Positions 2,098 through 19,329 of a DNA stretch of 64,000 nt are shown here, piece after piece; position 1 is the first letter of the stretch; every line of letters starts with the position of its first letter. A program made the translations under genes and the position numbers. The stretch is from Candidatus Methylomirabilota bacterium (lineage in GTDB: Bacteria > Methylomirabilota > Methylomirabilia > Methylomirabilales > 2-02-FULL-66-22), in NCBI GenBank assembly GCA_026387775.1, contig JAPLLC010000220.1:1203-65202 (forward strand), in the 5' to 3' direction. Under the pieces are notes generated by a model. It was not told where the DNA came from. It searched no databases and saw only the letters and a program-made list of their open reading frames with translations.

Positions 2098-3507
2098 ATG
2101 GCAACCCGGTTCGATGTCCTGCTGAAGAACGGCTGGGTGGTTGACCCGACCACGGGCCTGAATGGGGTGGCGGATGTGGCGGTGGTGGGCGGGCAGATCG
2201 CCGAGATCGCGGCCGATCTCGACCCCACCCGGGCGGACGAACTCTTCGACGTCTCGGGTGCCCACGTGGTCCCCGGCATCATCGATCTCCACATGCACGC
2301 CTCCGAGTGGCTGGGCGGAAAGTGGGGCCACAAGATGATGGCCCGGGTGGGCGTCACCACCGCCCTGGACATGTCCGGGCCCGTGGGCAGCGTCATGCGC
2401 ATGCTCCGCGACCACGGCACCGGCCTCAACATCGCGTGCATCGAGGCGGTGCGACCGGGCCTCACCGTGCGGGACAGCAACCCGGATCGGGCCGAACTGG
2501 AAGGACTCCTCGGCGCAGCGCTGACCGGTGGGGCCATCGGCATCAAGCTCCTGGGTGGCCACTATCCCCTCACCCCGGAGGCGACGGCTCGCGCGATCGC
2601 GCTGGCGAACGCCCGCCATGCCTACGTGGCGTTCCATGCCGGCACCACGAATCAGGGGTCGAACATCGACGGTTTTCTCCAGGCGGCGGAACTGGCGGCG
2701 GGGAACGCGGTCCACATCGCCCACATCAACAGTTACTGTCGCGGGGCGGTGCGGCCGCACATGCAGGAGACGGAGGAGGCCATCGCGGCGCTCATCGCCC
2801 ATCCCAACCTCCGCTCGGAGAACTACTTGTCACCCCTGAACGGCACGAGCGCCAAGTGCGCGAACGGCGCGCCGGAGAGCCGCGTGACCCAGCAGTGCCT
2901 GAAGGTCGGCGGGTTCCCGCCCACCGAGTCGGGCTTCGAAGCGGCCATCCTGGCGGGATGGGCGGAGATCAACCTGGAGGCGGGCGGCGAGGTGGTCCTG
3001 GCCACGGGAAAGCCCGCCGTGGAATACTGGCGGCAGCGGACCACCGACACCACGGTCAGCTTCCGGGTCAACCCGCCCGAGCCGCGATTGCGCCTGGCCA
3101 CCGCCAAGCGGCCCGACGGGCGGTTCGTGGTGGACTGCATCAGCACCGACGGCGGCGGGATCCCCCGCAACGTGATCGTCGAGATGGGGCTGGCCCTGGT
3201 GAACCTGCAAGCCCTCGGCCTGGCCGACTTCGTGCGCAAGACGAGCGCGAATCCGGCACGGATCCTGGGCTTGGCAAACAAGGGGCGACTGGCTGCCGGG
3301 GCGGATGCGGACATCACGGTGCTGGATGTGGCGGCTCGGAAAGCCGTGCTGAGCCTCGCCAACGGCGCGGTGATCATGCATCGTGGGCACGTCTGCGGCC
3401 AGGGGGGGCGGATGATCACGACGGCGGCGGGGCGGGGAGCGGTGGAGGCCGCCGGTTTGATCCCGATCGTCGTGGATGTGGAACAGGGAGGGTTTTATCG
3501 GTTCTAG
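2098..3507 (+). CDS. Amidohydrolase-superfamily metallohydrolase (substrate unknown)
   Basis: The N-terminal beta-sandwich (FDVLLKNGWVVDP...VAVVGGQIAEI) is followed by the metal-binding motif PGIIDLHMH and a C-terminal GADADITVLD-type segment. ATG 2098 is preceded by AGGAGG. The long ORF 1462..3507 is an upstream extension overlapping purM. Confidence 0.75.
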   Translation: MATRFDVLLKNGWVVDPTTGLNGVADVAVVGGQIAEIAADLDPTRADELFDVSGAHVVPGIIDLHMHASEWLGGKWGHKMMARVGVTTALDMSGPVGSVMRMLRDHGTGLNIACIEAVRPGLTVRDSNPDRAELEGLLGAALTGGAIGIKLLGGHYPLTPEATARAIALANARHAYVAFHAGTTNQGSNIDGFLQAAELAAGNAVHIAHINSYCRGAVRPHMQETEEAIAALIAHPNLRSENYLSPLNGTSAKCANGAPESRVTQQCLKVGGFPPTESGFEAAILAGWAEINLEAGGEVVLATGKPAVEYWRQRTTDTTVSFRVNPPEPRLRLATAKRPDGRFVVDCISTDGGGIPRNVIVEMGLALVNLQALGLADFVRKTSANPARILGLANKGRLAAGADADITVLDVAARKAVLSLANGAVIMHRGHVCGQGGRMITTAAGRGAVEAAGLIPIVVDVEQGGFYRF

Positions 3508-3581
3508 GCGCGGCGATCGGTCCGTCCGCGCCCGGCGCGTCCTGATCCCCGAAGGGCCGAAAGGCCCGAAAGGAGCGTGGC

Positions 3582-4880
3582 ATGTTCCTCAACATCATTG
3601 CCCTCGTGGTGACCGTCCTGACGTTTGCTGCCATCATCCGGAAGGCTGAAGTGCGGCTGGCCCTGCTGGCGGGCGGACTGGTCATGGCCGTGCTGTCCTG
3701 GAACCTGCAGGCCTTCTCGGAGGCCTTCACCAAGAGCATGACGGTGGCGGGCCTCATCAGCGTGATCCTGCCCGTCATGGGCTTCGCCGCCGTCATGGAG
3801 CTCACCGGGTGCAACGCCCACCTGGTGAAGATGCTCACCGATCCCCTGCTCAAGGTGCGGGTCATCCTGGTGCCCGGGGCCATGCTGGTGACCTACCTCA
3901 TCAACACCGCTATACCCAGCGCCGCCGGATGCACTGCCGCCGTCGGCGTGATCCTGATCCCGGCCATGATGGCCGCCGGCATCCATCCGGCCATGGCGGG
4001 AGCCGCGGTGTTCGCCGGCACCTGGGGGTCCGTGTTCAGCCCCGGCTCGCCCCACCCGGCCATGATCGCCAAGATCGCCAACGTGTCGGTCATCGACGTG
4101 ATCCTGGCCCACAAGACCGCCTCCATCACAGGGGCCCTCGTCGTGGCGGTACTCCTGTTCGCGGAAACCAAGCTGTTCAAGCAGGACAGGGACTGGACCC
4201 CCGAAAAAGCCGGGGCCGACCTCGGCAAGCTGGCGGCGGCGAAGCGGCCGACCCTCGAGAAGGTCAACTTCCTGATGGCGCTTATCCCCATGGTGCCCCT
4301 GGCCCTGCTCCTCATCACCGTGCCCGAGTTCGGCATCACGACGAAGATCCTGCCCAAAGGGCTCAGCGTCCTGGAGTCCATGCTGATCGGGAGCGTGCTG
4401 GGGATGCTGGTGACCTGGACCGGCCCGACCCGGGTCGTCACCGAGTTCTTCGACGGGATGGGCCGCGCCTATAGCTTTGTGATCGGCATCATCATCGCCG
4501 CCGGGGTCTTCATCGGCGGCCTGGAGGCCGCGGGCCTGATCACCTCCTTCATCGAGGCGCTGAAAGGCGCCAAGTCGGCGGTGCCGCTCCTGGGCACCTT
4601 CGGGCCCTTTATTGTGGCGGTGCTCAGCGGTTCCGGGGATGCGGCCGCCATCGCCTTCAACACGGCGGTGACCCCCCATGCGGCCCAGTTCGGCGTCACA
4701 TCCGTCCACCTGGGGAACATGGCCTGGGTCGGGGGGGCGCTGGGACGCAGCATGTCGCCGGTGGCGGCGGCCTGCATCATCGGGGCGGGCTTCGCCGGGG
4801 TAAGCCCTTTAGATCTCGCCAAGCGGAACGCGGTCCCCATGCTGGTGGCCGCCGTTGTGTTCATGCTGATGCAGGGCTAA
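3582..4880 (+). CDS. DcuC-family C4-dicarboxylate (anaerobic) carrier
   Basis: This is a polytopic membrane protein of 432 aa. Its C-terminal block GSGDAAAIAFNTAV...GGALGRSMSPVAAACIIGAGFAGVSPLDLAKRNAVPML aligns by eye with E. coli DcuC (GSGNAPFYAF...NLGRTLSPVSG...ISPFEVVKRTSVPVL). An AAAGGAG RBS is present. Confidence 0.8.
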   Translation: MFLNIIALVVTVLTFAAIIRKAEVRLALLAGGLVMAVLSWNLQAFSEAFTKSMTVAGLISVILPVMGFAAVMELTGCNAHLVKMLTDPLLKVRVILVPGAMLVTYLINTAIPSAAGCTAAVGVILIPAMMAAGIHPAMAGAAVFAGTWGSVFSPGSPHPAMIAKIANVSVIDVILAHKTASITGALVVAVLLFAETKLFKQDRDWTPEKAGADLGKLAAAKRPTLEKVNFLMALIPMVPLALLLITVPEFGITTKILPKGLSVLESMLIGSVLGMLVTWTGPTRVVTEFFDGMGRAYSFVIGIIIAAGVFIGGLEAAGLITSFIEALKGAKSAVPLLGTFGPFIVAVLSGSGDAAAIAFNTAVTPHAAQFGVTSVHLGNMAWVGGALGRSMSPVAAACIIGAGFAGVSPLDLAKRNAVPMLVAAVVFMLMQG

Positions 4881-14327: not shown

Positions 14328-15152
14328 CTAGCCGTGGAGCTGTTCGGTGATCGTCGTGATGGCGCCGTAGGCGTCGGGGCGTCGGTCGCGGGCCAGGAGG
14401 AATCGCTGCCGCGCCCGGATGACGGACTCTCGCTCGATCTCGGCGCTGACCACCTGCTCCTCGGTCCCGCTGGCCTGGATGAGGATCTTGCCGACCGGGT
14501 CGACGATCATGCTCTTCCCCGACATCACCCACTCGCCCTCCTGCCCCACATGATTGCAGGGGGCCAGGAAGACCCCGTTCTCCAGCGCCCGCGTGGTGAG
14601 GAAGTTCTCCCAGGGATCGGCCGCCGGGGTGGCATAGGGGGCGATGATCAGCTCGGCCCCGTGGAGCATCAGGCAGCGGCAGGACTCCGGGAAGAGGTTG
14701 TCGTAGCAGATCGAGAAGCCGACCGTCCAGTCCCCCACCCGGAACACCGGGAAGGACGATCCGCCCCGGAAGTAGATCTTCTCCAGGCTGAGATATGCCG
14801 CCGGGTGCACCTTGCGGTATTTCCCGACGACCCTCCCTTCCGGACTGATCAGCATCGCCGTGTCGTAGTAGAGGCCGGGTCGCGCCACCTCGAAGATCGT
14901 GGACACGATATGGACGCCGTGCTGCCGCGCTTTCTCCTTCATCCGGGTCTGGGTGTAGCCGTCCTCGGTCTCGGCGTAGTCCAGGTATCGGTAGTCGCGG
15001 TACTGGGGAAAGTACTCGACGTTGAAGAACTCCGGCAGCACGACGATGTCGGGGTGCTGACGGGCGGCCTCGTCCACGAAGGCGCAGGCCCGCTCCACGT
15101 TCTCGTCCCGGGCCGCCGCCCGGCTGTTCATCTGGATCAGGGTCAGTCGCAT
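14328..15152 (-). CDS. Carbon-nitrogen hydrolase (nitrilase superfamily)
   Basis: The start MRLTLIQMN is followed by the catalytic Glu context VVLPEFF, and the Cys context is GFSICYD. ATG 15152 is preceded by GAAGGAG. Confidence 0.8.
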   Translation of the reverse strand: MRLTLIQMNSRAAARDENVERACAFVDEAARQHPDIVVLPEFFNVEYFPQYRDYRYLDYAETEDGYTQTRMKEKARQHGVHIVSTIFEVARPGLYYDTAMLISPEGRVVGKYRKVHPAAYLSLEKIYFRGGSSFPVFRVGDWTVGFSICYDNLFPESCRCLMLHGAELIIAPYATPAADPWENFLTTRALENGVFLAPCNHVGQEGEWVMSGKSMIVDPVGKILIQASGTEEQVVSAEIERESVIRARQRFLLARDRRPDAYGAITTITEQLHG

Positions 15153-15210
15153 GATGGCGCTCCTTCTGCGATGCGTCTCCAGGCCCCCCTGCAAACGATT
15201 CGACTCCCGG

Positions 15211-15324
15211 CTAGCGGAACACTTGCAGGAATCGCACCACGAGGAGGGTCAGCAGCACGACCAGGTACACCCGAAGAAAATAGAGGGCGAAGCGGACCGT
15301 GGGGGTCATTTGCACGCGCGGCAT
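15211..15324 (-). CDS. Possible 37-aa hydrophobic micro-protein (MPRVQMTPTVRFALYFLRVYLVVLLTLLVVRFLQVFR)
   Basis: This small ORF is not in the supplied track (<60 aa). It has a single predicted TM helix and sits between the MgtE_N/CBS gene and the CN-hydrolase gene on the same strand. I see no homology evidence and no strong RBS. Confidence 0.2.
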   Translation of the reverse strand: MPRVQMTPTVRFALYFLRVYLVVLLTLLVVRFLQVFR

Positions 15325-15351
15325 TGCGAGCTCCTCGATCCAGGAACCGGA

Positions 15352-16632
15352 TCACGCGGTCTTCATGATGTCCTTGTAACGAATGACGCCGAGGATGCGA
15401 TCCTGCGCATCCACCACGGGAATCATGCGATAGTGGTACTTGGCGAAGATCTGTTCCAGGTCCTCTTGTGTGTCGTCCTGCTCCGCCGACACCACGGGAA
15501 ACGCCATGATCTCGCCCAGGGTTATCTCATCCCCGGCCAGCAGGAGCTCGCGCAGATCCACGACACCCTGCAAGAGCTTGCTCTCGGGCGCCACGACGTA
15601 GGCGTAAGAGAGGTGGTGCGGCTCGAGCCCGGAGCGGCGAATATACTCCAGCACCTCGCGGACCTTCGCCTCTTTCGGAAAGGAGACGAATTCCCCCGAG
15701 AGGAGGTCGCTCGCCTTCGCCTCTCGCGCCGCCAGGATCGTCTTGATCCGCCGAACGCTCTCATCCGGCAAGAGCCCCATCATCTCGGTCGTGTCGTCGT
15801 GCGGAAGCACCGTGAAGAGGTTCGCCAGTTGCGGGATGGTCATCTCCCCCAGGATCTGGCGTGCGCGCTCCTTGCGCAGGTTGGCGATCAACTGCCGCTG
15901 CGCCCGCGGCTCCGCCTCCAGCAGGGTGTCGGCGGCCTTCTCGGAGTCCAGGGCCGAGAAGAGGGCCTCCTGCTCGTTGCCGGTCAGCTCTTCCAGGGCG
16001 TCGGCCAGATCCTCGCTGGGCAGCTCTTTGAGCTGTTTCCGGGTCACCGAGAGCGAAACCTTGTCCGTGATGGTGGCGTCCTCGAGCGAGAGCGGCTGGA
16101 CATACTTCCAGGAGATCAGATCCTCCTTGAACCCCTGGATCCGTCCGAGTCCCCAGCGCCGCAGAAAGCCGTTGAACGAGCTGTCCACATGGATCAGGAG
16201 CAGCCGCCCCTTGGCCTCGAGCAGGTGCACGTCGTTGACCACCTCGGTGCGCCGCCCGTCCATATCCAGGATCGTCCGGCCCATCAGGTGGGTGTCCAGC
16301 ATGATCCAGCCGGGCTGGTCCGCGAAGGGAGGGTAGCTTCCACCCTGCTCGGACGGCAAGACGAAGATCGCATCGTCTTCGATCCGCAGCACTCGATCCC
16401 ACGGGATGATCTCCGTCGGTTTTCCCCAGCCGTGCTCGAGATAGATCCCGACCACCTCGGGGTACGGCTCCTTGAGGGCGAACACCAGATCCGTCAGTCT
16501 CCCAACCCGATCCCGGATCTTGCCCGCGCACACCGGCCGTTTCATCAGGTCGGAGAAGTAAAGGAAGCGGTAGCTGCCGATCCCCGGGGGGAGATCAGGG
16601 ACCCTCTGCATCAGGCTGGGTGGCGTGCCCAT
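15352..16632 (-). CDS. Soluble PRC-barrel + MgtE N-domain + CBS-pair protein (MgtE cytoplasmic sensor module without a membrane domain)
   Basis: The N-terminal PRC-barrel-like segment is YFSDLMKRPVCAGKIRDRVGRLTDLVFALKEPYPEVVGIYLEHGWGKPTEIIPWDRVLRIEDDAIFV. The central acidic helical MgtE_N-like region is LPSEDLADALEELTGNEQEALFSALDSEKAADTLLEAEP...IANL. The C-terminal tandem CBS is VVAPESKLLQGVVDLRELL...IPVVDAQDRILGVIRYKDIM. No hydrophobic segments are present. AGGAGG lies upstream of ATG 16632, which is 10 nt after the Nramp stop. Confidence 0.7.
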   Translation of the reverse strand: MGTPPSLMQRVPDLPPGIGSYRFLYFSDLMKRPVCAGKIRDRVGRLTDLVFALKEPYPEVVGIYLEHGWGKPTEIIPWDRVLRIEDDAIFVLPSEQGGSYPPFADQPGWIMLDTHLMGRTILDMDGRRTEVVNDVHLLEAKGRLLLIHVDSSFNGFLRRWGLGRIQGFKEDLISWKYVQPLSLEDATITDKVSLSVTRKQLKELPSEDLADALEELTGNEQEALFSALDSEKAADTLLEAEPRAQRQLIANLRKERARQILGEMTIPQLANLFTVLPHDDTTEMMGLLPDESVRRIKTILAAREAKASDLLSGEFVSFPKEAKVREVLEYIRRSGLEPHHLSYAYVVAPESKLLQGVVDLRELLLAGDEITLGEIMAFPVVSAEQDDTQEDLEQIFAKYHYRMIPVVDAQDRILGVIRYKDIMKTA

Positions 16633-16641
16633 GGCAGCCTC

Positions 16642-17961
16642 CTACTGCGTCGTCCCGAACCACTGCGGGAACAGCGTGCTCAGGGCAAACAGGGTGGACA
16701 TGATGGTCATGAAGATGGCGATGCTCACGTTGGCGATGTTCTGCCATCGGGTGTTCACCCGGTCGCCCATGAACTCCGGAGAGTTCAGGATCAGGATGAG
16801 GAAGAAGAGACAGGCCGGCAAGAGCGTGACGGCCACGATCTGGACGAACATGGTGATCGTGATCAGCGGCGCCCCCGGGATCAGCACCACCGCCCCGGAG
16901 CTCAGGAGCATCGCCAGGTAGACCACGTAGAACCAGGGCGCATCCCGCACGCTCTTGTTCAGCGAGTGGGCCCAGCCGAAGACCTCCCCCACGGCCCAGG
17001 AGGTGGACAGGGAGATGCACAGGGCCCCCAGGAAGCCCGCATCGAACAGGCCGATGGCGAAGAGCTTGCGGGCCAGATCTCCCTGGCCATGTGGGAGCAG
17101 CGGGACCAGGGCTTCCGCGGTCTGCTTGGCATCCTCGATGGTGATCGGCGGCCGGTGATAATAGAAAGCCGCGCCGGTGGCGATGATGATGAACGCCGCC
17201 ACGGTGCAGGTCACCAGCGAGCCGACGAATGTGTCGATCTTGCCGAACTTGATGTCGTGGAGGTCCAGACCCTTGTCCACCACGGCGCTCTGCTGGAAGA
17301 AGATCTGCCAGGGGGTGATGGTGGTGCCGATGTTGGCCAGGATGATGAAGAGCATGTCCCCCGTGAGACCGCCGGTGAGCGTCGGCACCAGCAGCCCCTT
17401 GGCGACCAGCCCCCAGCCCGGGGCGCTCGGCGTCTCCATCGCCCAGAAGGCCGCGGGGATGTAGACCAGGTTGAACGCGCAGAAGAACAGCGTCAGCTTC
17501 TCGAAGGTCCAGTACCTGCCCGTGATCACCACGACGAACAGGATGGCGGTGACCCCCAGGAACGTGATCCACGGTGAAACGCCGAACAGGCTCATGGCGG
17601 CCATCATCCCGATGTATTCGGTCACCAGGGTGAGCCAGTTGACGATCGCCAGGTCCACCAGCGAGAACCAGCCCCAGAATGGGCCGAACCCTTCGAAGAT
17701 GACCTCCGCGTGGCCGCGCTTGGTGACCGCGCCCAGCCGCACGGTCATCTCCTGGATGTAATAGGCCATGGGGACCAGGATGAAGAAGATCCAGAGGAGG
17801 CTGAAGCCGTACTTGGAGCCGGTTACGGCATACGTCGAGATGCCGCCGGCGTCGTTGTCGGCGACCATGGTGATGATCCCGGGGCCGAGCACGGCGAAGA
17901 GGATCAGGAGCCGCCGCCGAAAGCGGTTCAGGAGGTGGAAGGTTTTGCTGATCCAGTACAT
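16642..17961 (-). CDS. Nramp/SLC11-family transporter of the Nramp-related magnesium transporter (NRMT/NrmT-like) type
   Basis: The 439-aa polytopic protein has Nramp-type TM1 (GPGIITMVADNDAGGISTY) and TM6 (ANIGTTITPWQIFFQQS) blocks. The canonical DPGN is replaced by DAGG, and the canonical GAxxMPH by GTTITPW. The gene sits directly behind an M-box riboswitch. Confidence 0.8.
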   Translation of the reverse strand: MYWISKTFHLLNRFRRRLLILFAVLGPGIITMVADNDAGGISTYAVTGSKYGFSLLWIFFILVPMAYYIQEMTVRLGAVTKRGHAEVIFEGFGPFWGWFSLVDLAIVNWLTLVTEYIGMMAAMSLFGVSPWITFLGVTAILFVVVITGRYWTFEKLTLFFCAFNLVYIPAAFWAMETPSAPGWGLVAKGLLVPTLTGGLTGDMLFIILANIGTTITPWQIFFQQSAVVDKGLDLHDIKFGKIDTFVGSLVTCTVAAFIIIATGAAFYYHRPPITIEDAKQTAEALVPLLPHGQGDLARKLFAIGLFDAGFLGALCISLSTSWAVGEVFGWAHSLNKSVRDAPWFYVVYLAMLLSSGAVVLIPGAPLITITMFVQIVAVTLLPACLFFLILILNSPEFMGDRVNTRWQNIANVSIAIFMTIMSTLFALSTLFPQWFGTTQ

Positions 17962-18104
17962 GGGCGGTTCCGATCATTTGTCGACGCGGCGGCCGCTCGG
18001 CGCGGGCGGCGGAAATCCCGGGCGGCTTCCACCCCGGTACACGAGGATCCCGGGGCTCCTTCTTCACATAGCGGGCGGCGATGGGAATGCGCGATGCGCT
18101 GCAG

Positions 18105-18137
18105 AAACAAAAACCCTTTCCCTGGGTGGGGAAAGGG
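18105..18137 (-). terminator. Intrinsic terminator (expression platform of the M-box)
   Basis: On the minus strand it reads CCCTTTCCC-CACCCA-GGGAAAGGG followed by TTTTTGTTT. It lies between the riboswitch aptamer and the Nramp start codon. Confidence 0.65.
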
Positions 18138-18194
18138 TCAAGACCCTCGACCTTGGCACTTAACAGACGCGCCAACGTCTCCGATCTGCCGGAT

Positions 18195-18365
18195 TCCCCA
18201 CTCGTTCAAGTTTTGGCACCGCGCACCGTGAGAGGCCGACGGCCTCAGCCACTTCGAGCAAACCCTTAATCCGGGAGTGCTTGGTCTACCCGTCAACCAG
18301 CGTCTCTCGACGCCGCCGGGCAGCGGCCTGTGTGTCGCGCGGGAGCCTCACCTACCGAGGACCCG
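18195..18365 (-). promoter_or_regulatory. M-box (ykoK-type) Mg2+-sensing riboswitch aptamer
   Basis: The minus-strand RNA reads CCUCGGUAGGUGAGGCUCCCG...ACAGGCCGCUGCCCGGCGGCGUCGAGAGACGCUGGUUGACGGGUAGACC...AUUAAGGG...GGUGCCAAAACUUGAACGAGUGG. This reproduces the conserved M-box blocks as I remember them from B. subtilis mgtE: GUUAGGUGAGGCUCC, GCUGCCC, AGACGCUAAUGGGUCAAC, AAGG, GUGCUAAAGCUCUACGA. P1 pairing is CCUCG/CGAG. Confidence 0.8.
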
Positions 18366-18429
18366 TAACATGTTCTTTCGCTGCCATCACGCGGAGCCGC
18401 CACGGGCCGCCCCGCGAATATCCAACCGC

Positions 18430-18458
18430 TATTTAAGCCGAGATAGCCGGCCTGTCAA
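18430..18458 (-). promoter_or_regulatory. Sigma-70-like promoter for the M-box/Nramp operon
   Basis: The minus strand reads TTGACA-17 nt-TAAATA (ttgacaggccggctatctcggcttaaata), about 60 nt upstream of the aptamer. Confidence 0.45.
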
Positions 18459-18555
18459 CCCCCAAAGTGCATGCGTGCAAAGAAACTTTCTCCGATCCAA
18501 CCATCAGGCTCGCCGGTCAAGCCCTCCTATCCGCCTGGGCGAATATCGCCCCTTG

Positions 18556-19329
18556 CTACTGGCTCAGCGTCAAGACCCCCTGCATGGCGTCAAGCTGCAC
18601 ATGGAACCGCGAAAGGAAAGTGTTGCCCAGCAGACCCGCCACCTGAAGGGCCCCGGGCAGGTCGAACACCACGACCTGCACGTCCCGCGCCTCGGCCCCG
18701 CCCACCTGGATGGACTCCACGCTGGCGACAGGGGCGCGGATCATGCCCGAGGCGGTGGCGATGGTCACCATCGGCGAGCCGGAGCCGAAGGAGATGCCCA
18801 GTTCCTGCGCCAGCCCCGTCGAGATGGTGGTAAGACTGGCGCCCGTGTCCACGACGAACAGGGCCTCGCGGCGCCCGTTCATCAGGGCGCGCACAAGAAA
18901 GGCGTTGCCCGCGCGGATGAGGGGCACGGCGACCTTCCAGCTCTGCGAACTCGGCAACTCGGCGGAACCGCCCAGGTTCACGTCCACCTGCGCCGTGGCC
19001 CCTGCCCGCACGGTCACAGCCCTGCTGGAAGAGGTGAAACCCTGTTTGGAGACGTTCAGACGGTAGTTCCCAGGAGACACGCGGCTGAAGGTGAATCGCC
19101 CCTGGCTGTCACTACGGACGCCGCCCACACCCTCCAGGACGACGTCCGCCCCCTCCAGCAAGACGTTGTTCTGGGAGAGCACGCTGCCCATCACCGCCCC
19201 CAGCGAGGACGAATCCTGCGCCCGAGCCGGGGTTGGCAGGAACAGCAAGACTACCAATGCTGCCACAAATGTCCGCACGAAGTCCTCCGACGTTCGGGAA
19301 AATATAATAGGGGTAGCATTATCTGTCAT
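18556..19329 (-). CDS. Secreted CarboxypepD_reg-like domain + retropepsin-like (clan AA) aspartic protease
   Basis: It has a signal/anchor segment (FVAALVVLLFLPTPARAQD). A beta-sandwich regulatory-like domain follows (GSVLSQNNVLLEGADVVLEG...DSQGRFTFSRVSPGNYRLNVSKQGF). The C-terminal retroviral-type protease fold carries the catalytic FVVDTGASLTTIS. Confidence 0.65.
   Translation of the reverse strand: MTDNATPIIFSRTSEDFVRTFVAALVVLLFLPTPARAQDSSSLGAVMGSVLSQNNVLLEGADVVLEGVGGVRSDSQGRFTFSRVSPGNYRLNVSKQGFTSSSRAVTVRAGATAQVDVNLGGSAELPSSQSWKVAVPLIRAGNAFLVRALMNGRREALFVVDTGASLTTISTGLAQELGISFGSGSPMVTIATASGMIRAPVASVESIQVGGAEARDVQVVVFDLPGALQVAGLLGNTFLSRFHVQLDAMQGVLTLSQ

Follow-up and report, generated by a model that had tools for sequence, protein, structure and literature searches.

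Does a gene of the Nramp family whose metal-site residues depart from the canonical pattern encode a transporter of Mn2+ and Fe2+, or an importer of Mg2+? The question is raised by nrmT, an open reading frame (ORF) in a 64,000-nucleotide stretch of DNA (the window) from a Candidatus Methylomirabilota bacterium (assembly GCA_026387775.1, contig JAPLLC010000220.1, positions 1,203 to 65,202 of the forward strand). The likely automatic annotation of the gene is that of an Nramp Mn2+/Fe2+ transporter, while an earlier note, made from the sequence alone, had assigned it to the Mg2+-transporting NRMT/NrmT clade. The analysis described here strongly supports that assignment and corrects the likely annotation: nrmT quite probably encodes a secondary Mg2+ importer of the NRMT/NrmT type, with the Nramp (LeuT) fold, and is the first gene of an operon headed by an M-box (Mg2+) riboswitch. 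This reading is adopted because of the match to the Eggerthella lenta transporter EleNRMT, the D-x-x-G and T-x-x-T site residues, the loss of the histidines of transmembrane helix (TM) 6b, the M-box, the presence downstream of a partner gene resembling part of MgtE, and the fact that the genome encodes a canonical MntH at another place.

Identity of the metal site

The transporter gene and the two motifs that form its putative metal site are located as follows.

16642..17961, minus strand: nrmT, 439-residue NRMT-type Nramp-related transporter (PF01566; sequence and fold matches to 7qia)
17842..17853, minus strand: TM1 site D37-A38-G39-G40, canonically D-P-G-N (codons and alignment)
17308..17328, minus strand: TM6 site G212-T213-T214-I215-T216-P217-W218, canonically G-A-x-x-M-P-H (codons and alignment)

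The ORF and the codon positions of both motifs are exactly those given in the earlier note, with the codons for T213 to T216 at 17325-17314 on the minus strand, and the start codon is fixed by the N-terminus MYWISK, which is kept in all orthologues examined. The protein matches the Pfam Nramp family PF01566 with an E value of 3.7e-72, well outside what chance would give, and its top phmmer match among all PDB chains is EleNRMT (7qia, E 5.1e-63), the runner-up being a canonical Bacteroides Nramp at 4e-18. A BLASTP comparison gives 1e-83 for Cab3329 and 1e-10 for the MntH of the same genome.

In the phmmer alignment to 7qia, the TM1 segment ‘mvadndaggisty’ of the window protein lies opposite ‘amagndaggisty’, and the TM6 segment ‘anigttitpwq’ lies opposite ‘amigttiapwm’. 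Counting along the aligned chains makes D37, G40, T213 and T216 equivalent to D55, G58, T224 and A227 of EleNRMT, the four residues named as its widened Mg2+ site (Ramanadane et al. 2022, PMC8806188). The replacements of Asn by Gly, Ala by Thr and Met by Ala that the earlier note gave for EleNRMT are those published in the same paper. The corresponding columns of the genome's own MntH read D-P-G-N and G-A-T-V-M-P-H, which bears out the replacements claimed for the window protein itself, namely Asn by Gly, Ala by Thr and Met by Thr.

An AlphaFold2 model of the protein, computed from a 45-sequence alignment (predicted local distance difference test, pLDDT, 88.7; predicted template modelling score, pTM, 0.88), has helix 1 broken at residues 35-37 and helix 6 broken at residues 215-216, so the two motifs sit at both unwound helix centres. 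The earlier note had named a mismatch of the motifs with the homologous TM1 and TM6 positions as a way in which its claim could fail, and this is excluded by the 7qia alignment, the MntH columns and the helix breaks taken together. The nearest solved folds found by Foldseek are 7qia and 7qji (E 5e-21, TM-score 0.81/0.88), with DraNramp at 2e-14.

Outside the site itself, the canonical TM6b histidines are replaced in the alignment by W218 and Q223, and in TM3 the position of the canonical Asp is occupied by L112 while E115 is retained; TM9 is not reliably alignable to canonical Nramps. The protein scores below all of the NCBIfam cut-offs for Nramp and MntH (107.4 against 430, 58.3 against 272.5, and 47.2 against 50), and it reads DAGG and TTITPW where the canonical MntH motifs are DPGN and A/CxxMPH. 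The source genome also encodes a separate canonical MntH (DPGN/MPH) on another contig, which scores 558 bits against the MntH cut-off of 430 and passes all three models. The signature published for NRMTs is DxxG-TxxA/T (PMC8806188), and D37, G40, T213 and T216 of the window protein conform to it.

Regulatory leader and operon structure

Four further features, all on the same strand as nrmT, make up the remainder of the locus.

18190..18366, minus strand: M-box (Mg2+) riboswitch aptamer, RF00380 (Infernal)
18101..18139, minus strand: intrinsic-terminator-like hairpin (18139-18112) with a U-rich tail, the expression platform (consensus scan, RNAfold)
15352..16632, minus strand: soluble PRC-barrel, MgtE_N and CBS protein of 426 residues, the ‘MgtE-like fragment’ partner (Pfam)
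15211..15324, minus strand: 37-codon hydrophobic ORF, MPRVQMTPTVRFALYFLRVYLVVLLTLLVVRFLQVFR (homologous peptide at related loci)

The M-box is matched by Infernal over the full model (1-169) and scores 120.4 bits (E 2.3e-26; gathering score 44), and there is no second M-box in the 4.46-Mb genome assembly. In the consensus scan, the terminator-like hairpin downstream of it has a stem of 11 bp, of which 6 are G-C pairs, and TTTTGTTTCTG comes directly after it; the folding energy of the hairpin is approximately -19 kcal/mol according to RNAfold. Within the left arm of the terminator, UUCCCCAC (18133-18126) is complementary over 8 bp to GUGGGGAA (18201-18194), the 3' strand of aptamer helix P1, and this pairing is a candidate antiterminator; the minimum free energy fold of the isolated segment gives the terminator, not the antiterminator pairing. 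A consensus scan of 15000-18700 found no sigma-70-like promoter.

The partner protein contains domains PF05239, PF03448 and PF00571, lacks a membrane domain, and has a match at 4.9e-25 to 2yvy, the MgtE cytosolic domain. Its ATG lies 9 nt past the nrmT stop codon, which is overlapped by an AGGAGG sequence. The conservation of this arrangement may be judged from a set of orthologous loci that was obtained by scanning public genomes with the conserved partner protein, which yielded 80 loci (L006-L085) from Methylomirabilota, Acidobacteriota, Thermodesulfobacteriota, Planctomycetota, Verrucomicrobiota, Gemmatimonadota and Eisenbacteria. The partner gene lies directly 3' of nrmT in 74 of the 80 related loci, and a recognizably homologous peptide follows it in about 68 of 79, in seven phyla. 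The product of the 37-codon ORF is a basic-flanked single-helix peptide of the form MPRVQMTP..ALYFLR.YL..LL.L...RFL, and the conservation of this ORF behind the partner gene implies that the cassette has three genes. The operon is composed of the M-box, nrmT, the soluble MgtE-like protein and the 37-residue membrane peptide. Shin et al. (PMC4072509) did not settle what the MgtE-like partner does; by comparison with characterized relatives, it probably senses cytoplasmic Mg2+. As a separate observation, the cassette is unusually conserved across phyla, with identities of 65-95% for the transporter and 63-97% for the partner.

The MgtE membrane domain was not found in the source genome, which has one CorA gene (contig C54, L004:1402-2395); in the available sequence the CorA reading frame is interrupted where consecutive bases are masked or undetermined, and its GMN motif is present. 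The loci nearest to that of the window belong to uncultured NC10/Methylomirabilota metagenome-assembled genomes (MAGs), and metagenomes from freshwater, peat, soil and sediment contain near-identical DNA. The gene nrmT appears to be the sole riboswitch-controlled Mg2+ uptake gene of an uncultured NC10-type bacterium of freshwater, peat and soil.

Proposed mode of action

By analogy with characterized relatives, the operon would be controlled by the Mg2+ level of the cytoplasm. When cytoplasmic Mg2+ is high, the M-box would fold and the terminator would stop transcription, so that the riboswitch acts as an ‘off’ switch, and when Mg2+ is low the operon would be read through. The transporter would then bind a largely hydrated Mg2+ ion in an enlarged pocket, where it would be coordinated by the carboxylate of D37, the hydroxyl of T213 and one main-chain carbonyl in the unwound part of TM6. 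The pocket is expected to be enlarged because G40 takes the place of Asn and the small T216 takes the place of the thioether-bearing Met, the residue by which alkaline-earth ions are normally kept out. Transport would proceed without proton coupling, as it does in relatives, given that the TM6b histidines are replaced by W218 and Q223 and the TM3 Asp by L112, and the driving force for uptake would in consequence be the membrane potential. Besides Mg2+, the protein probably accepts Mn2+ as a secondary substrate.

Position within the family and alternative functions

The family trees, which were built by quick search and rooted on one long outgroup (canonical MntH), place the window protein inside the non-Slc11 NRMT-like radiation. 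Within this radiation, the C. acetobutylicum proteins Ca_c0685 and Ca_c3329 group with EleNRMT and the A. capsulatum-type protein in a single clade (Shimodaira-Hasegawa-like approximate likelihood ratio test, SH-aLRT, 96) with 45-47% mutual identity, and the window protein, which is 33-36% identical to the members of that clade, lies in a separate and well-supported branch.

Several results weigh against the assignment of nrmT as a Mg2+ importer. The characterized NRMTs all fall outside the sub-branch of the window protein, and that branch includes a group which retains the methionine, with the site DxxS-AxxM (‘GAVIMPWM’). An M-box lies beside nrmT in only about 8 of the 80 loci of the orthologous group. 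EleNRMT carries Mn2+ as well as Mg2+, and its site residues alone failed to give EcoDMT the ability to transport Mg2+ (both PMC8806188), and the A. capsulatum NrmT (Acp2977) is reported to act mainly as a Mn2+ transporter (Shin et al. 2014, PMC4072509). The RNA evidence is minimal, since it consists of two short lake-water metatranscriptome contigs, from relatives, with 95-96% identity to the M-box leader and to the partner gene, which is too little for a claim of expression.

The separation of the sub-branches also admits a reading in which the locus is a three-part Mg2+-gated uptake cassette from a second NRMT sub-branch, with properties unlike those of EleNRMT and CabNRMT. The differences could lie in selectivity, if T216 and Q219 form a harder all-oxygen site that admits less Mn2+, or in regulation by the soluble sensor. 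This reading is considered unlikely.

A different substrate is proposed by the reading in which the protein is chiefly an importer of Mn2+, or of divalent transition metals in general, as the A. capsulatum NrmT appears to be, with Mg2+ as a poor substrate and the partner protein answering to another ion. This is an unlikely alternative. In its favour, Acp2977, which has an adjacent MgtE-like gene, fully rescues a Mn2+-uptake mutant and rescues a Mg2+ mutant only at millimolar Mg2+ (PMC4072509); the Mn2+ transport by EleNRMT, the lack of an M-box at most orthologous loci and the position of all characterized members outside the sub-branch favour it further. The window locus, however, has the M-box, which was proposed by Shin et al. 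as a marker of Mg2+ specificity (PMC4072509), and the genome already contains a canonical MntH. The A. capsulatum-type protein differs from the window protein in its site (D-P-N-G against D-A-G-G), its regulation, its gene order and its sub-branch, while the four site residues of the window protein are those of Ca_c0685 and Ca_c3329, both of which transport Mg2+. The comparison depends on the gene that was used to represent Acp2977 (L219:3385-4662, genome G249), an identification that is inferential and is based on the order of partner and nrmT and the lack of an M-box, both of which fit the published description. The TM1 sequence of this gene, D-N-D-P-N-G, contains the Pro and Asn of DPGN with the Asn one position earlier, and this D-P-N-G motif may be related to the reported preference for Mn2+.

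The methionine-retaining group, which comprises at least 588 taxonomically wide-ranging loci and is sister to the clade of the window protein, has Trp at the His position. None of the 80 loci sampled from it (L086-L165) has an MgtE-like neighbour. The assignment of the A. capsulatum NrmT to this group was considered and rejected, since the group is without the partner (0 of 80) and the A. capsulatum-type gene has the site D-P-N-G / T-x-x-A.

M-boxes occur in at least three phyla of the sub-branch to which the window protein belongs. At one locus of the same phylum, from a Methylomirabilales MAG whose protein is 87% identical (L010), the M-box is absent and an unrelated region lies upstream of nrmT (at about 2675), so a recent gain or loss of the riboswitch took place within the lineage. 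Two deltaproteobacterial MAG loci, L052 (1801-2649) and L049, have the M-box approximately 670 nt 5' of nrmT, an unusually long leader, and the interval contains no convincing ORF. In a Thermodesulfobacteriota MAG (L028), an M-box at 2718-2896 is followed by an nrmT without its first ~135 codons (ORF 3067-3984); the truncation is due either to a deletion at the 5' end or to an artefact of assembly. Immediately 3' of an Ala-form Clostridial nrmT there is a NiCo riboswitch (L210:206-302, minus strand), which presumably regulates the following gene and has no connection with nrmT.

The tree of the cassette departs in places from the taxonomy of its hosts: Acidobacteriota are nested in the NC10 group, a ‘Baltobacteraceae’ MAG lies beside NC10, and a Terriglobales MAG is placed within Eisenbacteria. 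This incongruence suggests either horizontal transfer or mis-binning of MAGs. Among the NRMT-like representatives of the wider family, ten (P0015, P0016, P0017, P0024, P0027, P0034, P0036, P0038, P0042 and P0049) are 510-562 residues long, which is about 100 residues more than usual, and these mostly have a D-x-x-A / T-x-x-A site.

Interchange of threonine and alanine at residue 216

The earlier note had further suggested that the replacement of Met by Thr may define a distinct variant of the site. This proposal does not survive comparison with the published signature, in which the last position is already given as A/T, or with the sequences of the founding NrmTs and the orthologues of the window protein.

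The founding NrmT genes were recovered through a search of Clostridiaceae genomes, which led to genome G115. The four primers with which Shin et al. 2014 cloned the genes all match this genome exactly and bracket two NrmT genes (Ca_c0685 and Ca_c3329), each of which reads GNDAGG at TM1 and GTTITPY at TM6 and hence has Thr in place of Met. M-boxes lie 5' of both genes, and Ca_c0685 has the split MgtE-like genes, as published; the statement of the earlier note that the C. acetobutylicum NrmT was originally noticed through its M-box is likewise correct (PMC4072509). The Thr form occurs in 10 of the 11 M-box-linked Clostridiaceae NrmT loci sampled. In a wider survey of 83 full-length representatives of 50%-identity clusters, the combination D-G-T-A occurs 19 times and D-G-T-T, the combination of the window protein, 12 times.

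Within the orthologous group, position 216 is Thr in 40 and Ala in 33 of 73 proteins with 65-95% identity to that of the window, and the site is otherwise invariant (DNDAGG...GTTI[T/A]PW). A maximum-likelihood tree of the orthologues rooted on EleNRMT requires five changes between Thr and Ala, four of which are forced by well-supported branches, and has Thr in its basal lineages; when the tree is rebuilt without EleNRMT, three changes are found. M-boxes precede both forms: the Thr form in the window and in L006-L009, and the Ala form in L028, L049, L052 and L220 (56% identical). In DraNramp, the substitutions M230A, M230S, M230T and M230G each give Mg2+ import in Mg2+-auxotrophic E. coli (preprint 10.64898/2026.03.30.714904). 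Taken together, the published TxxA/T signature, the Thr of the founding NrmTs and the interchange among orthologues lead to the rejection of Thr216 as a new or distinct site variant. Thr at the methionine position is the state of the founding C. acetobutylicum NrmTs and alternates freely with Ala, and the two residues would appear to be functionally near-equivalent.

A more restricted version of the same idea is that Thr216 together with Gln219 forms a distinct all-oxygen subtype of the site, with a selectivity unlike that of the Ala/Met form. Positions 216 and 219 (i+3) do covary strongly within the orthologous group, where T-Q occurs 39 times and A-M 31 times with only 3 exceptions. This coupling, however, is supported by no more than 2-3 pairs that are independent in the phylogeny (p about 0.5 in a sign test) and is gone in the wider family, in which A-Q occurs 19, A-M 20, T-M 9 and T-Q 3 times, so a rule that couples T216 to Q219 and A216 to M219 was rejected. 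In the C. acetobutylicum proteins, Thr is combined with Met at i+3, M-boxes are found before Thr and Ala forms alike, and DraNramp M230T and M230A both yield Mg2+ import, all of which make a distinct subtype very improbable. The further reading of nrmT as a decayed, non-functional Nramp relic with drifted site residues, which has nothing in its favour but the loss of the canonical motif, is effectively refuted by the conservation data, in that the frame is intact, the same start codon is kept, and the site is invariant (apart from Thr or Ala at position 216) among orthologues of 65-95% identity from seven phyla; the confident fold prediction and the conserved operon structure also speak against it.

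Comparison with known systems

Among the closest counterparts of the window system are the C. acetobutylicum NrmTs (CabNRMT). Ca_c0685 and Ca_c3329, which were shown to complement a B. subtilis strain deficient in Mg2+ transport (Shin et al. 2014, PMC4072509), have the same Nramp-related fold, an upstream M-box, and four site residues identical to those of the window protein (D-x-x-G and T-x-x-T). A gene resembling the cytoplasmic domain of MgtE is present in the operon of Ca_c0685, as it is in the window, but is absent for Ca_c3329. The two systems also differ in several respects: the C. acetobutylicum proteins are only about 35% identical to the window protein and lie in the other sub-branch, and they have Tyr at the canonical His position and Met at position 219, where the window protein has Trp and Gln. 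The order in the Clostridial operons is M-box, partner and nrmT, whereas in the window it is M-box, nrmT, partner and 37-residue peptide, and the partner of Ca_c0685 is split in two, while that of the window has an N-terminal PRC-barrel.

EleNRMT (7QIA/7QIC/7QJI/7QJJ), which has a widened site and transports Mg2+ and Mn2+ without proton coupling (PMC8806188), is the best solved-structure match by both sequence and fold. Its E133 corresponds to E115 of the window protein, and both proteins have Trp at the position of the first TM6b His. The methionine position is Ala227 in EleNRMT and Thr216 in the window protein, the second TM6b His is replaced by Asn in the former and by Gln in the latter, and the two proteins, which are 35-36% identical, belong to different sub-branches.

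The A. capsulatum-type NrmT is also Nramp-related, with an adjacent MgtE-like gene and the TM6 sequence GTTIAPW (T-x-x-A). It differs from the window protein in having D-P-N-G at TM1, no M-box and an upstream partner, and it is 33% identical and in the other sub-branch.

The canonical Slc11/MntH proteins (DraNramp, ScaDMT and the genome's own MntH) share PF01566, the LeuT fold and the discontinuous TM1 and TM6 with the window protein. They are only 20-25% identical to it, however, and have DPGN and A-x-x-M-P-H motifs together with proton-pathway residues. They are H+-coupled Mn2+/Fe2+ transporters that exclude Mg2+.

Compared with these systems, what the window adds is mildly new: a separate sub-branch of the NRMT-like radiation, an operon in reversed order with a conserved micro-peptide, and M-box control in at least three phyla. 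A sub-branch which combines a reversed operon with a PRC-barrel partner and a micro-peptide is a sensible target for studies of how NRMTs are regulated.

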